The notes under the pieces were generated by a model that ran no database searches, had not been told where the DNA came from, and worked only from the letters and a program-made list of their open reading frames with translations. DNA of 64,000 bases from an uncultured Flavobacteriaceae bacterium. Its GTDB lineage: Bacteria > Bacteroidota > Bacteroidia > Flavobacteriales > Flavobacteriaceae. Below are positions 5,761 through 12,463 of this stretch, piece after piece (position 1 is the stretch's first letter; the number at the start of each line of letters is the position of its first letter). The position numbers and the translations under genes were made by a program. The stretch covers positions 9,766 to 73,765 of the forward strand of contig CAZPHF010000001.1 in NCBI GenBank assembly GCA_964586115.1. The letters run 5' to 3'.

Positions 5761-7350
5761 TTACTTGTACTCACTTACAAAATGTAATTGAACACTTGGG
5801 TATTTTTGTTGTGTCATCTGCACTGTAAAAGCGGAGTCAGCTAAAAAAACCAATTGGCCTTTCTTATCTTTGGCAAGGTATCGTTGTTTGACCCTTTTGA
5901 ATTCTTTAAATTCTACACTTTGTTCATCTTCCGGTTCTACCCAACAGGCCTTATGTACGTTTACGTTTTCATAGGAGCATTTGGCTCCGTATTCGTGTTC
6001 AAGTCTGTATTGAATTACTTCAAATTGAAGCGCTCCAACGGTTCCTATTACTTTTCTTCCATTAAGATCTAAAGTAAACAACTGGGCCACCCCTTCATCC
6101 ATTAATTGGTCAAGTCCTTTGGCTAACTGTTTGGATTTCATTGGGTCAGCATTATTAACATACCTAAAATGCTCAGGTGAAAAGCTGGGTACTCCTTTGA
6201 ATTCCAAAATTTCACCCTCAGTCAGGGTATCGCCTATCTTAAAATTTCCAGTATCGTGTAAGCCTACAATATCTCCAGGAAAAGATTCATCAACGATTTC
6301 CTTCTTCTCAGCGAAAAAAGCATTCGGACTTGAAAATTTCATTTTCTTACCAAGTTTGACATGTAAATAGTTGGTATTTCTTTTAAAAACTCCTGAAACA
6401 ATCTTGACAAAGGCGAGTCTGTCGCGGTGTTTCGGGTCCATATTTGCATGAATCTTAAACACAAAACCCGTAAATTTCTTTTCTTTGGAATCAACCATTC
6501 TGTTGTTAGACATTTTTGGTTGAGGAGAAGGTGCAATGTCGATAAAACAGTCCAACAACTCCTTTACTCCAAAATTATTAAGTGCAGAGCCAAAGAATAC
6601 GGGTTGTAAATCACCTTTCAGATATGCTTCCTTGTCAAATCCAGGATATACCTCTTGAACCAGTTCTAATTCTTCTCTAAGTCTTTCTGCAGCTGTTTCT
6701 CCAATAATACGATCCAGTTCAGGGTCATCCAAATCAGTAAATTCCATTCCTTCAGAAACAGTCTGTTTACTGCCCGCTGAAAATAAGTTCAGTTTTTTGT
6801 CCCAAATATTATAAATTCCCTTGAAATCATAGCCCATCCCAATGGGGAAACTTAAAGGAACGACCTTTAAACCTAATTTTTGTTCCACTTCATCCAAGAG
6901 GTCAAAAGCATCCTTACCCTCCCTGTCGAGTTTGTTGATAAAAACGATTATCGGAATATTTCGCATTCGGCAGACCTCTACAAGCTTTTCTGTTTGTGCT
7001 TCGACACCTTTCGCAACGTCGATGACCACAATGACGCTATCAACCGCAGTCAGGGTTCTAAAAGTATCTTCGGCAAAATCTTTGTGACCCGGTGTATCTA
7101 GAATATTGATTTTTTTGTCCTTATAAATAAAAGCAAGCACGGATGTGGCAACAGAAATACCCCGTTGACGTTCAATTTCCATAAAGTCAGAAGTCGCACC
7201 TTTTTTGATCTTATTGCTTTTAACAGCACCGGCCTCTTGGATTGCACCACCAAATAGCAGGAGCTTCTCCGTTAAGGTAGTCTTACCAGCATCCGGGTGA
7301 GAAATAATACCAAAAGTACGCCTTCTTTGTATTTCCTGAAGTAAATCCAT
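5761..7350 (-). CDS. prfC: Peptide chain release factor 3
   Basis: RRRTFGIISHPDAGKTT, LDTPGHKDF, NKLD, GSALNNFGV, GALQFEV; 529 aa. Confidence 0.97.
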   Translation of the reverse strand: MDLLQEIQRRRTFGIISHPDAGKTTLTEKLLLFGGAIQEAGAVKSNKIKKGATSDFMEIERQRGISVATSVLAFIYKDKKINILDTPGHKDFAEDTFRTLTAVDSVIVVIDVAKGVEAQTEKLVEVCRMRNIPIIVFINKLDREGKDAFDLLDEVEQKLGLKVVPLSFPIGMGYDFKGIYNIWDKKLNLFSAGSKQTVSEGMEFTDLDDPELDRIIGETAAERLREELELVQEVYPGFDKEAYLKGDLQPVFFGSALNNFGVKELLDCFIDIAPSPQPKMSNNRMVDSKEKKFTGFVFKIHANMDPKHRDRLAFVKIVSGVFKRNTNYLHVKLGKKMKFSSPNAFFAEKKEIVDESFPGDIVGLHDTGNFKIGDTLTEGEILEFKGVPSFSPEHFRYVNNADPMKSKQLAKGLDQLMDEGVAQLFTLDLNGRKVIGTVGALQFEVIQYRLEHEYGAKCSYENVNVHKACWVEPEDEQSVEFKEFKRVKQRYLAKDKKGQLVFLADSAFTVQMTQQKYPSVQLHFVSEYK

Positions 7351-7467
7351 GATTGAAAATTAGTCCGCAAATATAAGCCAACTATGTAAACTTATCATTA
7401 GGATATTCAATTTTTGAATGCAGCCTTTGAGCGAGCTTTAAGATCTCTTTTTATTGTTTAATATAAA

Positions 7468-8172
7468 TCAATTAATAACCTCTATTTTCATAAAAACATC
7501 ATCAAGCGGCCACTCATCGCTTCCTGCCTTAAGATTCACTATTTTATCAATAGTTTCAAAACCCGAGATTACTTGGCCAATAACGGTGTGTTCGCCATCA
7601 AGGTGATGCGCCCCTTTTCTGTTTTGAACAATATAAAATTCAAAGGCTGTTGAATACTTTCTAGGATTGTTTTCCCAGTCTCTTGCCATGGCAATTGCTC
7701 CATATGTATGACGCCGTTGCTTGCTGAATTCAGGTGGGATTTTATATCGCTGGTATCTGGCTTTATACCTTTGTGTGTCGAGCCGTTCTGATTCACCACC
7801 CTGTATAATAAAATCAGGAACGACACGATAGAAACAGGTCGTGTCAAAATATCCCATCTTGGTAAGGAAGATGAAACTGGCCCGATGTAAAGGTGTGTCT
7901 TTATACAATTGAATTTTAATATTTCCAAGTCTTGTCTTGATCAATACCTTGGTTTCTTTGTTTTCCTCGCCGTATTTGCCTAAAAACAAGATTACGTTCT
8001 TTTTGTTAATAGAATCTTTTGGATGTTGTGGGGTAGATGTGGTTTCAATATTTTCTTTCTTTAAAACCTTTTCAACGATTATTTCTTGATCTTTTGCTCT
8101 ATTCTTGTCATTTTTACAATTTGAAAACATGAGCAGAAACATAATGAAGAAAGGTATTGAGAAATATTTCAT
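7468..8172 (-). CDS. Cyclophilin-type peptidyl-prolyl isomerase, lipoprotein
   Basis: FYRVVPDFIIQGG, GAIAMAR, HLDGEHTVIGQV; lipobox FSNC. Start moved to ATG 8172 (MKYFSIP). Confidence 0.88.
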   Translation of the reverse strand: MKYFSIPFFIMFLLMFSNCKNDKNRAKDQEIIVEKVLKKENIETTSTPQHPKDSINKKNVILFLGKYGEENKETKVLIKTRLGNIKIQLYKDTPLHRASFIFLTKMGYFDTTCFYRVVPDFIIQGGESERLDTQRYKARYQRYKIPPEFSKQRRHTYGAIAMARDWENNPRKYSTAFEFYIVQNRKGAHHLDGEHTVIGQVISGFETIDKIVNLKAGSDEWPLDDVFMKIEVIN

Positions 8173-8254
8173 AGCTATTGATATGCATAAATTAAAAACA
8201 AAGATATAGCAATGAAACAAATGTTTGTATTTTCACTGACTAAATAAGACATGA

Positions 8255-8725
8255 ATGAGAGGAGTTATTGTTATATGCATTTTATTTATTTGTATTTCAT
8301 TTAGTTGTGAAGGAAAGAAAAAGGATCATAAAAAGGCAACACTTTTTACAGATATGAAAGGTCTTCCAGTAAGCTTGGAACAATTCAAAGGAAAACGAAT
8401 TTTGGTTAATTATTGGGCTACATGGTGCGTACCATGTTTAAAAGAATTTCCTTCTTTGCAAAAGGCAGAAGAATTGCTATCGAATGAAAATTATGTATTC
8501 TTGTTTCCAAGTCCGGATAGCCCTAAAGAAATAAAAGCATTTTATGAATTGAGAAGTTATTCTTTAAATTTTTTATCCCTGAATCAGTCTTTAGATAAAT
8601 TGAATATTTATGCCTTACCGTCAACCATCATATATACAACGGAAGGTTCTGTTTATAAAAAAATTGATGGTGCGACAGATTGGTTCTCACCTGAAATGAT
8701 TGATTTGTTAAGATCTGTACCATGA
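8255..8725 (+). CDS. TlpA-family thioredoxin-like lipoprotein
   Basis: Lipobox SFSC; LVNYWATWCVPCLKEFP; cis-Pro ALPST motif. Confidence 0.88.
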   Translation: MRGVIVICILFICISFSCEGKKKDHKKATLFTDMKGLPVSLEQFKGKRILVNYWATWCVPCLKEFPSLQKAEELLSNENYVFLFPSPDSPKEIKAFYELRSYSLNFLSLNQSLDKLNIYALPSTIIYTTEGSVYKKIDGATDWFSPEMIDLLRSVP

Positions 8726-9957
8726 AACATGTAATAAAATTTAGTTTGATTTTTTTTGTAGCTGTTCTGCTATCCTGTCAAGTAAAGGATAAGGTTGAGG
8801 TTTTGAATTTGGTAGAAATGAATCCTCCGGTAGACACGCTATCCATGCAACCTTATCTATTTGCAAACGGATCAGAATTATTGATGTCATGGACAGAACA
8901 GAAGAATGATTCAGTATTTGCACTATACGTTTCAAAATTAACTGATGGAAAATGGAGTGCCAGGTCAGAAATTAAAAAAGGTAAGAATTGGTTTGTGAAT
9001 TGGGCAGATTTTCCATCTATTACAGGCTTTGACGATAAGCTACTTAGTTACTATTTGAAGAAATCTGATGCAGAGACCTTTGCCTATGATATTTTTTTAA
9101 GGCAATCCAATGATTCGGGAATACATTGGAATATTGAAAATAAGTTACACAGTGATACGACCAAAAGTGAACACGGTTTTGTTAGTATGACACCTTCAAG
9201 TGATAATTCTTTTTTTATCAGTTGGCTAGATGGAAGAAATACAAAAAGTATGGGGCATGATCATGCTCATGGTGAAAATGGAGGAGCCATGCAGATCAGA
9301 GTGGCAGAGCTCATGACCAACGGAGAGATAAAAAATGAATTTGAACTTGATTCTCGTACTTGTGATTGCTGCCAAACTTCAATAGCGATGACAGATGATG
9401 GTCCAATTGTTGTTTTTAGAGATAGATCTGGTCAAGAAATAAGAGATATTTATTATTCCAAATATAAGGATGGAGTTTGGTCCAAATCTAAGCCTGTTTT
9501 TCAGGACAACTGGACGATAAACGGTTGCCCTGTAAATGGTCCTAAAGTGGCAGTTCAAGAAAATTCAGTAGCTGTGGCGTGGTTTACTGCTGCTGATAAT
9601 ATTCCCAAAGTAAATCTCGCATTTTCAAACGACAGGGGTGAGAACTTTTTACACCCCATTCAAATTAATCAGGGGAAGGCTATCGGAAGGGTTGATCTCT
9701 TAATGCTAGACAAAGACACTGCTTTGATCAGCTGGATGGAATCATCAGAAGATATGGCTTTGCTGAGAATTGCAAAAGTTGGAATCAGTGGAGAAATAGA
9801 GAAAATAATAACAGTAGGAGAAATCTCATCATCTAGATCAACTGGTTTCCCTCAAATGGAATTAGTTGGTAACCAAATCTATATGGCTTGGAATGGTTTG
9901 GAAAATGATAAAAAAAAGATCAAGGTTTTAAGTCTTTCTTCGGAAGCACTAAATTGA
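8722..9957 (+). CDS. Asp-box (BNR) beta-propeller lipoprotein with CDCC/GCP/His-rich motifs
   Basis: Lipobox LLSC; Asp-boxes SNDSGIHW and SNDRGENF; TCDCCQT, NGCPVNGP, HDHAHG. Overlaps the TlpA stop (ATGA). Confidence 0.7.
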   Translation: MKHVIKFSLIFFVAVLLSCQVKDKVEVLNLVEMNPPVDTLSMQPYLFANGSELLMSWTEQKNDSVFALYVSKLTDGKWSARSEIKKGKNWFVNWADFPSITGFDDKLLSYYLKKSDAETFAYDIFLRQSNDSGIHWNIENKLHSDTTKSEHGFVSMTPSSDNSFFISWLDGRNTKSMGHDHAHGENGGAMQIRVAELMTNGEIKNEFELDSRTCDCCQTSIAMTDDGPIVVFRDRSGQEIRDIYYSKYKDGVWSKSKPVFQDNWTINGCPVNGPKVAVQENSVAVAWFTAADNIPKVNLAFSNDRGENFLHPIQINQGKAIGRVDLLMLDKDTALISWMESSEDMALLRIAKVGISGEIEKIITVGEISSSRSTGFPQMELVGNQIYMAWNGLENDKKKIKVLSLSSEALN

Positions 9958-9981
9958 TATCTTTGTAAAAAAAAGATTGGC

Positions 9982-10494
9982 TTGGAAGAAAAAGTAATTT
10001 TAGTAAATGAAAAAGATGATCAACTGGGCTTGATGGGCAAAATGGAAGCCCATCAAAAAGCTGTGCTCCACCGTGCTTTTTCGGTATTTATATTTAATGA
10101 AAAAGGAGAGTTGCTATTGCAACAGAGAGCACTTGACAAATACCATTCACCAGGTTTATGGACCAATACCTGCTGCAGTCATCAAAGGGATGGAGAAACT
10201 AATATTGAAGCAGGAAAAAGAAGGTTGCATGAAGAAATGGGTTTTAGCTGTGGTTTGGAAGAGATGTTTTGGTTCGTTTACAAAGCACCATTTGATAATG
10301 GTTTAACCGAACATGAACTTGATCATGTGATGAAAGGATATTATGATCAAGATCCAAAAATAAATAAGGAAGAAGCAGCTTCTTTTAAGTGGATGTTGCT
10401 CGAAGAGGTGAAGAAGGATATCGAGAAGTATCCTGAATTATATACCGAATGGTTTAAAATTATTTTTAAAGAATACGATCAAAGATTAATATAA
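9982..10494 (+). CDS. idi: Isopentenyl-diphosphate delta-isomerase (type I)
   Basis: LHRAFSVFIFN, WTNTCCSH, EHELDHV; TTG start. Confidence 0.95.
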   Translation: MEEKVILVNEKDDQLGLMGKMEAHQKAVLHRAFSVFIFNEKGELLLQQRALDKYHSPGLWTNTCCSHQRDGETNIEAGKRRLHEEMGFSCGLEEMFWFVYKAPFDNGLTEHELDHVMKGYYDQDPKINKEEAASFKWMLLEEVKKDIEKYPELYTEWFKIIFKEYDQRLI

Positions 10495-10495
10495 T

Positions 10496-10906
10496 ATGAA
10501 AGTTACCGTTAGCAGAAAGGCGCATTTCAATGCGGCCCACCGATTGTACAATATTGAATGGACAGACGCAAGAAATACCACTGTATTTGGTAAATGCGCA
10601 AACCCGAATTACCATGGGCACAACTATGAACTGATTGTTGCAGTAAAAGGGGAAATACATCCTGAAACAGGCTTTGTGATGGATATGAAAGTGCTAAAAG
10701 ATTTGATCAGAACCGAGATTGAAGATGAATTTGACCACAAGAATCTCAACAAAGAAGTGATTGAATTTAAAACACTTAATCCTACGGCAGAAAACATTTC
10801 TGTAGTGATCTGGAATAAATTGCGTGCTAAAATAGAGGAAGATTTGGAATTGACTATCACGCTTTATGAAACGCCAAGAAATTTTGTAAGCTATAATGGA
10901 GAATGA
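10496..10906 (+). CDS. queD: 6-carboxytetrahydropterin synthase (PTPS family)
   Basis: FNAAHRL, CANPNYHGHNY, FDHKNLN, PTAENI, LYETPRN. Confidence 0.88.
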   Translation: MKVTVSRKAHFNAAHRLYNIEWTDARNTTVFGKCANPNYHGHNYELIVAVKGEIHPETGFVMDMKVLKDLIRTEIEDEFDHKNLNKEVIEFKTLNPTAENISVVIWNKLRAKIEEDLELTITLYETPRNFVSYNGE

Positions 10907-11448
10907 TGATTAAAAAAGCAGCTTTTTTTGTTCTAATCTTAGTTCTGATATTGATTTTGTTCTCAGTATTCAAATCAAGTGCTCAAACTCCTTTAAAAGT
11001 TGGAGACAAAATACCTTCTTTTGAATTACAGGATCAATCTGGTAATAATTTTGAGATAGATCAGTATACAGGAAATACAGCTATGGTGATTTATTTTTAT
11101 CCTAAAGATGATACGCCTGGTTGCACCAAAGAAGCCTGTAGTTTTAGAGATGCTTATGAAGCCTTTACCGATAAAAACATCAAAGTAATTGGCATTAGCT
11201 CTGACGATGTAGAGAGTCATAAGAATTTTGCGGCGAAGTATAATTTACCCTTTACACTGCTGGCTGACACAAAAAGTGAAGTGAGAGGTTTATTTGGAGT
11301 CAAAGACAATGCCTTTGGTTTGATTCCTGGCCGTGTAACCTACGTGATAGATAAAAAGGGTGAGATTATCTTTATGTATGACAGCCAATTAAAAGCTGCA
11401 AAGCATATCGAAGAGTCTCTTAAAGCCATTGATGGCAGTATGGACTGA
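10903..11448 (+). CDS. Peroxiredoxin (BCP/PrxQ family)
   Basis: FYPKDDTPGCTKEACSFRD; PGRVTYVID. Confidence 0.92.
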   Translation: MMIKKAAFFVLILVLILILFSVFKSSAQTPLKVGDKIPSFELQDQSGNNFEIDQYTGNTAMVIYFYPKDDTPGCTKEACSFRDAYEAFTDKNIKVIGISSDDVESHKNFAAKYNLPFTLLADTKSEVRGLFGVKDNAFGLIPGRVTYVIDKKGEIIFMYDSQLKAAKHIEESLKAIDGSMD

Positions 11449-11455
11449 AACAATA

Positions 11456-12463
11456 CTAAAGATTTTTCAGGTAGTAACTTTCTAATTCAGTTAAATATTT
11501 CTCCTTCAGCGCATCGCCTATCAAGGCATATTCAAAAGAATTTTTTGCCAGTACATAAATGTCCTCTTTAGAAAGGTCCAATGCCTTTTGAATTTCTATG
11601 TAATTTTGATTCACCTGACCTCCAAAATAAGCTGGATCGTCAGAGTTCACCGTTACTTTCATTCCAAGTTCCATCATTTTTTTTAAGGGATGATCTTTTA
11701 GATCAGGAACAACCTGAAGTGCACTATTTGAAAGAGGGCAAACCGTGAGGGCAATATCTCTTTTGACTATTTCCTGCACAAGTGTCTCGTCCTGCATTGA
11801 GTTATTACCGTGGTCTATTCTTTCAATTTTTAATATGTCAAGGGCCTCCCAGACATAATCTGCGTTGCCTTCTTCTCCGGCATGTGCCAAAGGTATATAG
11901 CCTGCCTGTACAGAGGCTTTAAAAACATTCTTAAACTTAGAAGGAGGATTTCCTTTTTCAGATGAATCAAGCCCTACAGCCGTGATATATTCTTTAAATG
12001 GGAGTGATAGTTCAAGTATTTTAAACGCATCTTCTTCTGATAAATGTCTCAGGTAGCTCATGATCAATAATGAGGAGATCCCTAATTTTTCTTTGGCGTC
12101 GGCACAAGCCCTATGGATACCTTTGACTACAGTACCAAATGCTATACCTCTTTCTGTATGGGTTTGAGGGTCGAACATGATCTCTGTATGCCTTACATTT
12201 TGCGCTGCACATTTTTTCAAATAGCTATAGGTAAGGTCATAGAAATCCTGTTCATGTATCAAAACACTTGCTCCTTGGTAGTATATATCCAAAAAGTCTT
12301 GCAGACAATCAAATTGATAGGCTTCTTCGATTTCCTCAACAGAGTCAAATGGTATCTTGATTCCATTTCTCTTGGCAATGTCAAACATGAGTTTTGGCTC
12401 AAAAGTTCCTTCGATATGCAGGTGTAGCTCTGCTTTAGGTATTCCCTGAATAAATTTTTCCAT
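11456..12463 (-). CDS. add: Adenosine/adenine deaminase
   Basis: LHLHIEG, AHAGEE, IDHG, NSDDPAYF. Confidence 0.9.
   Translation of the reverse strand: MEKFIQGIPKAELHLHIEGTFEPKLMFDIAKRNGIKIPFDSVEEIEEAYQFDCLQDFLDIYYQGASVLIHEQDFYDLTYSYLKKCAAQNVRHTEIMFDPQTHTERGIAFGTVVKGIHRACADAKEKLGISSLLIMSYLRHLSEEDAFKILELSLPFKEYITAVGLDSSEKGNPPSKFKNVFKASVQAGYIPLAHAGEEGNADYVWEALDILKIERIDHGNNSMQDETLVQEIVKRDIALTVCPLSNSALQVVPDLKDHPLKKMMELGMKVTVNSDDPAYFGGQVNQNYIEIQKALDLSKEDIYVLAKNSFEYALIGDALKEKYLTELESYYLKNL

Follow-up and report, generated by a model that had tools for sequence, protein, structure and literature searches.

Here we describe a gene pair that encodes a TlpA-like thioredoxin and a beta-propeller lipoprotein with four invariant cysteines. 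The pair lies in a stretch of 64,000 nucleotides from the genome of an uncultured Flavobacteriaceae bacterium (the window; all positions are those of the window unless a locus is named). The first gene (8255-8725, + strand, 156 aa) specifies a TlpA/ResA-like thiol:disulfide oxidoreductase lipoprotein. The second gene (8722-9957, + strand, 411 aa) specifies a member of a Cys4 propeller family that is mislabelled as sialidase and for which a seven-bladed beta-propeller is modelled. We propose that the four cysteines form a periplasmic site with copper as putative ligand, kept reduced by the TlpA-like protein, and regard the chances of this reading as even. A preliminary description of the same DNA had suggested a surface or periplasmic module for the capture or redox chemistry of copper, zinc or nickel, and is partly supported by the analysis below. 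Full-text literature searches, whose coverage leaves out most subscription journals, returned no paper on the propeller family; the copper-gene contexts of the TlpA-propeller family are new here.

Four invariant cysteines and their proposed pocket

Conservation was counted over 151 sequences, namely 150 representatives of clusters at 50% identity and the window protein. The mature propeller contains exactly four cysteines (C214, C216, C217 and C269) and each of them is invariant (151/151), a constancy well beyond chance. Three belong to a CxCC motif, TCDCCQT (residues 213-219, 9358-9378; T219 in 149 sequences), and the fourth to NGCPVNGP (9520-9543), in which P270 and G273 are likewise found throughout. 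Further positions without exception are G152, L169, R241, W264 and G322. E150, H151, D96, D170, R172, R233, R235, D242, R323 and R372 are each kept in 147 to 150 sequences.

These residues are grouped in a few motifs, all read from the + strand. The NWADFP loop (residues 93-98, 8998-9015) precedes the inner strand of blade II and is nearly constant in the alignment (N93 149, W94 147, A95 150 and D96 150 of 151), with variation in distant paralogs. The EHGFVS loop (residues 150-155, 9169-9186) precedes the inner strand of blade III (E150 149, H151 147, G152 151 and F153 150). WLDGR occupies residues 168-172 (9223-9237; W168 150, L169 151, D170 150, R172 148), and RDRSGQEIRD (9418-9447) supplies R233 (150), R235 (148), R241 (151) and D242 (149).

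In eight distant paralogs (E 1e-27 to 1e-38) NWAD is no longer present and EH is only partly kept. The four Cys, T219, D170, R172, R233, R241, D242, W264, P270 and P274 are kept in all eight. Because these paralogs keep the cysteines while other motifs have changed, the Cys pocket is seen as the oldest and most constrained part of the protein. The preliminary description had named poor conservation of the Cys motifs in homologs as one of the results that would refute it; all 151 sequences and the 8 paralogs have the motifs.

The position of these motifs was mapped on an AlphaFold2 model of the window propeller (pLDDT 86.8, pTM 0.86), on which all strand assignments rest. In the usual propeller topology, the loops that enter the innermost strands and the loops between strands 2 and 3 build one face round the central axis. 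On the model strands, near-invariant motifs occur in the loops entering the innermost strands (93-98, 150-153, 213-219, 267-274, 322-325 and 372-377), and the remaining ones are in strand 2-3 loops of the blades (168-190 and 233-242). The CxCC loop and the GCP loop fall on adjacent blades. From the model we infer that the four cysteines converge in a central top pocket, near Glu150 and His151.

A disordered His/Gly-rich loop extends from residue 173 to 189 (9238-9288; pLDDT <50 at 175-186) and includes HDHAHG (9256-9273). The loop varies in length from 7 to 55 residues. Its His content is 12.3% against 1.8% in the rest of the protein, a 6.8-fold enrichment; at least two His are present in 89 of the loops, and 44 have none. 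The His cluster of the preliminary description is therefore retained as a matter of composition, but HDHAHG is not conserved by position and there is no fixed His site.

Both proteins have a hydrophobic leader that ends in Cys (...ISFSC and ...VLLSC). The lipobox cysteine is C18 in the thioredoxin, where the signal peptide and lipobox cover 8255-8308, and C19 in the propeller (8776-8778; Cys in 130/151). The propeller leader is of the Sec lipoprotein type with no twin-arginine motif, so that any cofactor would be acquired after export from the cytoplasm. The preliminary description left open a surface location, which is unlikely because TlpA needs an electron donor in the inner membrane.

The TlpA-like thioredoxin and its coupling to the propeller

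The thioredoxin exceeds the Pfam cut-offs, with 44.8 bits for AhpC-TSA (cut-off 26) and 42.8 bits for Redoxin. A profile built from 34 partner thioredoxins matches the solved structures of ResA, TlpA and StoA (1e-16 to 1e-25; ResA and TlpA at 1e-19 to 1e-25), and these matches together with the Pfam scores place the protein in the thioredoxin-like fold of the AhpC-TSA/Redoxin type. The best NCBIfam model is TlpA (NF047696) at 61.6 bits, far under its equivalog cut-off of 230. Judged from its sequence, the product of 8255-8725 is a typical TlpA/ResA-class protein, TlpA-like and not a TlpA ortholog.

The active site WCVPC was read at 8423-8437 (+ strand). Among the 34 partners W54, T56, C58 and C61 are invariant, W57 and P60 are nearly so, and C18 and P122 are kept in all; P122 is presumably the cis-Pro of the thioredoxin. 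The protein thus has both the WCxxC and the conserved Pro of the TlpA/ResA/CcmG class. Its export and tethering are indicated by the lipoprotein leader with the invariant C18, and a DsbD-type membrane protein, the usual electron donor, is encoded in the genome (a frame of 683 aa on contig 2 that scores 85.9 bits with DsbD_TM). The window genome carries three further TlpA-like paralogs.

The two open reading frames (ORFs) were found on the + strand where the preliminary description had placed them, and the positions, the ATGA overlap, the lipoprotein nature of both products and the motif coordinates were read directly from the sequence. The overlap (8722-8725, + strand) combines the ATG of the propeller gene (8722-8724) with the TGA of the thioredoxin gene (8723-8725), an arrangement of translational coupling. 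In most related loci the spacing of the two genes is likewise between -4 and +1 nt.

A same-strand TlpA-like gene immediately precedes the propeller gene in 57 of the 80 closest public loci, and in most of these the two genes overlap or are separated by 1 nt. Neighbours were clustered over 100 Bacteroidota loci, made up of these 80 and 20 from a phylum-wide sample, and propeller clades were cut at 55% identity (n=34). A TlpA gene is present in 59 of the 100 loci (58 at -1 on the same strand) and is the sole widely shared neighbour. The other Bacteroidota neighbours considered as conserved partners (cyclophilin, prfC, Nudix and PTPS) are confined to 1-7 propeller clades and were read as local synteny. 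An adjacent TlpA gene was found in 1 of the 20 phylum-wide loci and a separate adjacent one in none of 20 Acidobacteriota loci.

The two domains are also fused in nature. Three thioredoxin-propeller fusions were found, in both orders. P0225 consists of a leader, an N-terminal thioredoxin with WCSPC and the propeller; P0254 and L111 consist of a leader, the propeller and a C-terminal thioredoxin with WCAPC. Six apparent N-terminal fusions (P0204, P0262, L092, L112, L113 and L114) were set aside as over-extended ORFs, with a lipoprotein leader just before the domain. The link with TlpA in the preliminary description is thus borne out among the close Bacteroidota relatives and by the fusions, and fails as a general rule across the phylum and in Acidobacteriota. 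The coupling is real and is not obligatory. In genomes with no adjacent partner, other TlpA paralogs could serve the propeller.

In two loci of family f28 (L095:5567-5992 and L101:5616-6011) the place of TlpA is taken by a short hydrophobic ORF (131-141 aa) that overlaps the propeller start. These two ORFs resemble each other and have no Pfam match; an alkaline phosphatase gene is convergent on the other side.

Copper genes around the propeller

Copper markers were sought within 5-6 kb on each side of the propeller in 120 loci. At least one copper-type marker (Cus with HMBD, copper-type P1B ATPase, multicopper oxidase or CopD) was found in 20 loci. Pfam confirms 19 of them, and L071 is identified by motif and phmmer.

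In Bacteroidota, one strand of L065, L071 and L078 encodes in order CusA, an outer-membrane factor, CusB(HMBD), a second CusB-like protein, DUF3347, TlpA, the propeller and DUF2911, with a multicopper oxidase between DUF3347 and TlpA in L078. L069 has CusB(HMBD), DUF3347, an AraC regulator, an HMA-MauE membrane protein, an HMBD lipoprotein, TlpA, the propeller and DUF2911. P1B ATPases take part in same-strand strings in L073 (AraC, P1B ATPase with HMA and two HMBD, DUF6503, DUF2911, TlpA, propeller), in L098 (multicopper oxidase and, further along, HMBD lipoprotein, TlpA, propeller, DUF2911, YceI and P1B ATPase), and are also found in L051, where an HMA protein and a P1B ATPase lie upstream of the TlpA-propeller pair. 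A convergent Cus system is present in L031, L041 and L046. CusB(HMBD) and an HMBD lipoprotein precede the propeller in L079, and an HMBD protein adjoins it in L086. The propeller stands between a CopD-like membrane protein and a globin in L099.

In the Acidobacteriota locus L068 the order is outer-membrane efflux protein, two-domain multicopper oxidase, cytochrome c, DUF5818, propeller and P1B ATPase. An outer-membrane efflux protein and a two-domain multicopper oxidase (439-623 aa) adjoin the propeller in 6 of 21 Acidobacteriota loci (L068, L112, L117, L119, L126 and L129), and cytochrome c is also present in 3 of the 6. In L128, of the same phylum, the propeller is followed by CopD and a TonB-dependent receptor.

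The identity of the neighbours was compared with curated models. The ATPases of L073, L098 and L068 score above the cut-off set for TIGR01511, a model of copper-translocating P1B ATPases. For the multicopper oxidases the best models are CueO or copper-resistance CopA, with scores under the cut-offs. HMBD is a rare domain, with 3 copies in genomes of 3.0-4.2 Mb. In genome G111 all 3 HMBD domains are within 9 kb of the propeller, and in genome G301 5 of 8 are within 8 kb.

Several longer proteins contain the propeller as a domain. P0280 combines YHS, two HMBD, a P1B ATPase with a CPC motif, a hydrophobic stretch and a C-terminal propeller; it is a single sequence and possibly a read-through error. 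A search of longer proteins gave two fusions of the propeller to TonB-dependent receptors. Tandem double propellers (P0271, P0272 and P0273, 765-774 aa) have a diverged second copy that is still CxCC (CACC or CGCC). The propeller is also fused to the C-terminus of a penicillin-amidase-type hydrolase (P0269, P0275, P0278 and L110) and of TPR-CHAT (P0274, P0276 and P0277). P0266 has a C-terminal extension of 240 residues that begins with a CSGCH haem-c motif.

The metal site predicted in the preliminary description is therefore supported independently by gene context, and the copper islands and the P1B-ATPase fusion narrow its three candidate metals to copper. Another thiophilic metal is quite unlikely. 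The Cys4 pocket would then hold structural or catalytic Zn(II), or Cd, Hg, Ag or As(III), with a role in the uptake of zinc or the detoxification of heavy metals. ZnuA and other zinc- and nickel-binding proteins typically have His-rich loops, Ag(I) is also handled by Cus systems, and alkaline phosphatase, a zinc enzyme, is the convergent neighbour in three loci of one family. The HMBD and P1B ATPase classes span several metals according to Table 4 in PMC7558416. Against these points, the neighbouring ATPases pass the copper-specific TIGR01511 and score lower on ZntA models, the fused ATPase has the CPC motif, multicopper oxidases and CopD are copper-specific partners, and the precedent for CxCC that has been solved is a copper site.

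DUF2911 (PF11138, no known function) is directly beside the pair within the copper islands of L065:7212-7835, L069:7215-7835, L078:7200-7850, L073:4965-5546 and L098:7195-8082, and was detected by phmmer in 8 of the 120 loci; full-text literature search found it named in one paper only, and not for such a role. Small secreted ORFs of 126-128 aa, rich in His, Met and Asp and with no Pfam match, lie between the propeller and the multicopper oxidase in L112:6162-6542 and L129:6128-6514 and may be candidate copper-binding peptides. The HMBD lipoproteins of L079:5479-5841 and L098:5102-5398 have long His/Asp/Gly tracts before a CPMH...C..C core and are encoded immediately upstream of TlpA or the propeller.

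Fold of the propeller and the sialidase label

The model contains 28 strands between residues 41 and 406 and a closing strand (31-33), arranged as seven four-stranded blades. On this model the propeller is seven-bladed, not six-bladed as in GH33 sialidases. A structural search with VIA, independent of Foldseek, gave best matches of Z 25-32 with about 300-340 residues aligned at about 3 Å. The top matches are CylK (Z 32.2), rhamnose-glucuronate lyase (28.6), the BP39L and PLL lectins, a glycoside hydrolase, integrin alpha and PL25 ulvan lyase, which we take to be seven-bladed propellers. The top sialidase matches of Foldseek were discounted, with TM scores of only 0.44-0.51 and a root mean square deviation of 9-14 Å.

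Sequence comparisons gave few matches. The window propeller has no Pfam match, even at E<=10, and no NCBIfam match. A search of solved structures with the single protein gave nothing but a chance antibody match (E 1.1), and the family profile had no match at E<=1 among PDB sequences. The window protein is below the gathering score of Pfam BNR_2 (PF13088, 31.4 bits); this model is matched weakly by 19 of 32 aligned relatives at E<=0.01 (best 7.8e-9), and the family appears borderline to it. On present comparisons of sequence and model, the propeller seems to belong to no characterised family that was tested.

The preliminary description anticipated that the protein would be annotated automatically as a sialidase, and relatives do carry the names 'Exo-alpha-sialidase' and 'sialidase family protein' in addition to 'hypothetical' (in the ESM Atlas, 'Exo-alpha-sialidase family protein' and 'hypothetical'). 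The window propeller has two Asp-boxes of the form SxDxGxxW/F, both read from the + strand. SNDSGIHW (9106-9129) lies between model strands 122-129 and 138-144, and SNDRGENF (9625-9648) has S302 in 141 and F309 in 139 of 151 sequences. The boxes are on the side opposite the conserved loops, and Asp-boxes are known from many non-sialidases too. No significant sequence alignment of the propeller to any solved sialidase was obtained; conserved Arg and Tyr are present in the family. Because the model has seven blades and superposes poorly on sialidases, the sialidase label is unsupported by the fold and rests on the two Asp-boxes.

A carbohydrate-active enzyme is accordingly very unlikely. The protein would in that case be a sialidase-like hydrolase or a propeller-type polysaccharide lyase, the four cysteines would form structural disulfides, and TlpA would aid folding. 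The Asp-boxes, the weak BNR_2 matches and the presence of rhamnose-glucuronate lyase, glycoside hydrolase and PL25 ulvan lyase among the best structural matches all point this way, as does one locus beside SusD and GH43-type genes. However, glycan-utilisation-type neighbours occur at that one locus only and none recurs in the clustering, the window protein and the family profile lack Pfam and PDB sequence matches, and both the blade number and the sialidase superposition disagree. In addition, TlpA-type proteins are reductants, the wrong direction for disulfide formation, and the family was not found in 63 sampled genomes of the large family f21.

Proposed mechanism and its alternatives

In the proposed mechanism the propeller would pass Sec unfolded and then be lipid-anchored in the periplasm. 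Its hub would offer four thiolates on neighbouring blades, with Glu150 and His151 alongside. TlpA, fed electrons by the DsbD-type protein of the genome, would keep or re-make the thiolates reduced in the oxidising periplasm. The flexible His-rich loop on the same face may collect copper from solution. The reduced Cys pocket would bind copper, most likely as Cu(I), perhaps in a Cys-bridged cluster as in CopG. In that protein a tetranuclear copper cluster is held by a conserved CxCC motif, and the gene is linked to copA and cusCBA (PMC7558416). The module could serve to buffer copper, to interconvert Cu(II) and Cu(I), or to deliver copper to Cus, multicopper oxidases or cuproenzyme assembly. We infer copper as the ligand, the action of TlpA on these cysteines and the physiological role alike; in more general terms, the module would be a periplasmic copper or thiol-redox accessory on a new fold.

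Several observations weigh against the copper reading. The window pair is outside any copper island and lies in a housekeeping context, with cyclophilin, prfC, Nudix, PTPS-like, Bcp and adenosine deaminase as neighbours, and the 3 HMBD domains of the window genome are all on contigs other than that of the pair. No copper gene is near the propeller in 100 of the 120 loci. The copper loci are related and not independent, amounting to about ten or more distinct arrangements and not 20, and their enrichment was judged against a rough expectation of about 1% per locus, which is our own estimate and does not come from matched control loci. Adjacency to TlpA is limited to 8 of the 34 propeller clades. 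The fusions to penicillin amidase and CHAT-TPR have no obvious copper logic. No counterpart of the two adjacent Met ligands of CopG was identified in the propeller. The propeller was considered as a replacement for CopG and rejected as such: DUF411, the CopG domain, and the propeller co-occur in family f28 (47/49 and 46/49 genomes) and are not adjacent, so the propeller is not simply the substitute of CopG. Within the window's class, none of the families sampled had a DUF411 match. Finally, about 55 near-invariant positions, including seven Arg, are more than a simple metal carrier needs, and this excess suggests an enzyme with an anionic substrate or ligand.

The main alternative, which is rather unlikely, is a metal-free thiol enzyme. 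Here CxCC and the fourth Cys would be catalytic, as a reductase or disulfide isomerase acting on an oxidised, probably anionic periplasmic substrate or on copper-damaged proteins, with recycling by TlpA, and the copper islands would reflect copper-induced thiol stress. The many invariant Arg, Asp and Trp round the pocket suggest substrate binding, and the thioredoxin fusions in both orders resemble fusions of an enzyme with its reductant, such as Trx-MsrA/B. A redox theme is seen in the exported Bcp-type peroxiredoxin three genes downstream, in the CSGCH haem-c extension of one relative and in the cytochrome c neighbour of three Acidobacteriota loci. The Scs proteins are reported to be copper-induced envelope thiol oxidoreductases. 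However, no substrate can be named, and four invariant Cys exceed the need of a CxxC-type or single-Cys cycle. The His-rich loop, the fusions to a copper ATPase and to TonB receptors and the CopD neighbours suit metal handling better than protein repair.

A more far-reaching form of the copper reading is unlikely as a whole. The family would then represent a new cuproprotein class, in which the hub of a seven-bladed propeller carries a Cys-bridged multinuclear copper (or copper-sulfur) cluster as a thiolate counterpart of CuZ. Such a protein would be a periplasmic copper redox enzyme on the DsbD-TlpA path, which might act as a cupric reductase or buffer Cu(I), and would supply the efflux pumps, multicopper oxidases and cuproenzyme assembly of Bacteroidota and Acidobacteriota.

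Distribution of the family and neighbours of the pair

The propeller family is large and is found in two phyla. Of 8000 candidates scored in a word-indexed search, 7685 reached E<=0.001. Counted as representatives at 50% identity, an exhaustive profile search found 6157 members at E<=0.001, and 1733 when the threshold was E<=1e-30. The window genome has one copy. In the window's phylum a match at E<=1e-20 is present in 80 of 301 sampled genomes, 73 of the 80 at E<=1e-79. The distribution is patchy by family, from 46/49 genomes in f28 to 2/22 in the window's own family and 0/63 in f21. In the second phylum, that of locus L068 and taken as Acidobacteriota, 37 of 151 genomes have a match.

In the window, a cyclophilin-type peptidyl-prolyl isomerase with a lipoprotein-like leader (7468-8220, - strand) is divergent from the pair. 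Of the 120 loci, 12 have a cyclophilin close to the propeller, at variable positions, and this proximity may be mere synteny within Flavobacteriaceae. Three genes downstream of the TlpA-like gene lies a Bcp/AhpC-TSA peroxiredoxin (10903-11448, + strand; Pfam 134 bits), which is probably exported because it has an N-terminal hydrophobic leader and could be a second client of the TlpA-like protein. The order propeller, Nudix, PTPS-like and Bcp is repeated in L016, a locus without TlpA. A scan of 7300-11700 for promoters and terminators gave counts at or below the shuffle expectation and carries no information on operon limits.

Thousands of proteins in at least two phyla are labelled 'sialidase' or 'hypothetical' and have as their most conserved feature a four-Cys pocket that is coupled or fused to a TlpA-type reductant and recurs among copper pumps and oxidases. 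The correction of this annotation matters for marine and soil metagenomes, in which counts of sialidases are inflated. If the site binds copper, the family would extend periplasmic copper handling, which has hardly been studied in Bacteroidota and Acidobacteriota, by a new component with a new fold. TlpA-like thioredoxins, numerous and mostly orphan in both phyla, would then gain a dedicated client outside cytochrome oxidase assembly.

Relationship to known systems

The GH33 sialidases and BNR_2 proteins share with the family the Asp-boxes, a propeller fold and the database label. They differ in having six blades in place of seven, in their poor superposition and in the absence of a sequence match between the propeller and any solved sialidase. 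To our knowledge, the four invariant Cys are absent from sialidases.

NosZ is a seven-bladed propeller with a multinuclear copper centre, CuZ, at its hub, which is assembled in the periplasm and is ligated by His with sulfide bridges. NosZ is not among the 50 listed structural matches of the propeller model, and no nos genes were seen nearby.

Propellers joined to redox domains have been described in other systems. In NHLRC2/SOQ1 and DsbI a TlpA-like thioredoxin or a DsbB-like domain is joined to a beta-propeller of unknown role (PMC6107167 and PMC4460558). Their propellers are six-bladed NHL or unrelated and are without the Cys4 motif. The thioredoxin domain of NHLRC2 had no oxidoreductase activity in an assay cited by the authors of these papers.

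The Scs proteins of enterobacteria (ScsB/C/D) provide a parallel for the reductant. They are reported to be copper-induced envelope thiol oxidoreductases, among them a membrane-bound reductase that resembles TlpA and is supplied by a DsbD-like protein. In contrast to the pair described here, all are of the thioredoxin fold and no propeller component is present.

TlpA of Bradyrhizobium is an exported, membrane-tethered thioredoxin with WCVPC, as is the window protein; PMC6107167 gives WCVPC for TlpA of B. diazoefficiens. TlpA reduces the copper-ligand Cys of CoxB and ScoI before metallation (PMC7558416; Abicht 2014 as cited there and in PMC6107167). The window thioredoxin differs in being a lipoprotein, and its presumed client is the propeller and not a cupredoxin or Sco protein. 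The genes or domains of the pair are coupled or fused, unlike those of TlpA and CoxB.

CopG is a parallel for the proposed site. CopG (DUF411, PF04214) is a small protein of the thioredoxin fold with two adjacent Met ligands, whereas the present protein is a seven-bladed propeller of 390 residues whose fourth Cys is placed on the next blade. The two are unrelated in sequence, and the propeller does not match PF04214. What they have in common is the CxCC motif (151/151 here), the periplasm, and a linkage to copA-type ATPases, cusCBA and multicopper oxidases that in the propeller family is found in a minority of loci (20/120) and is not seen in the window.

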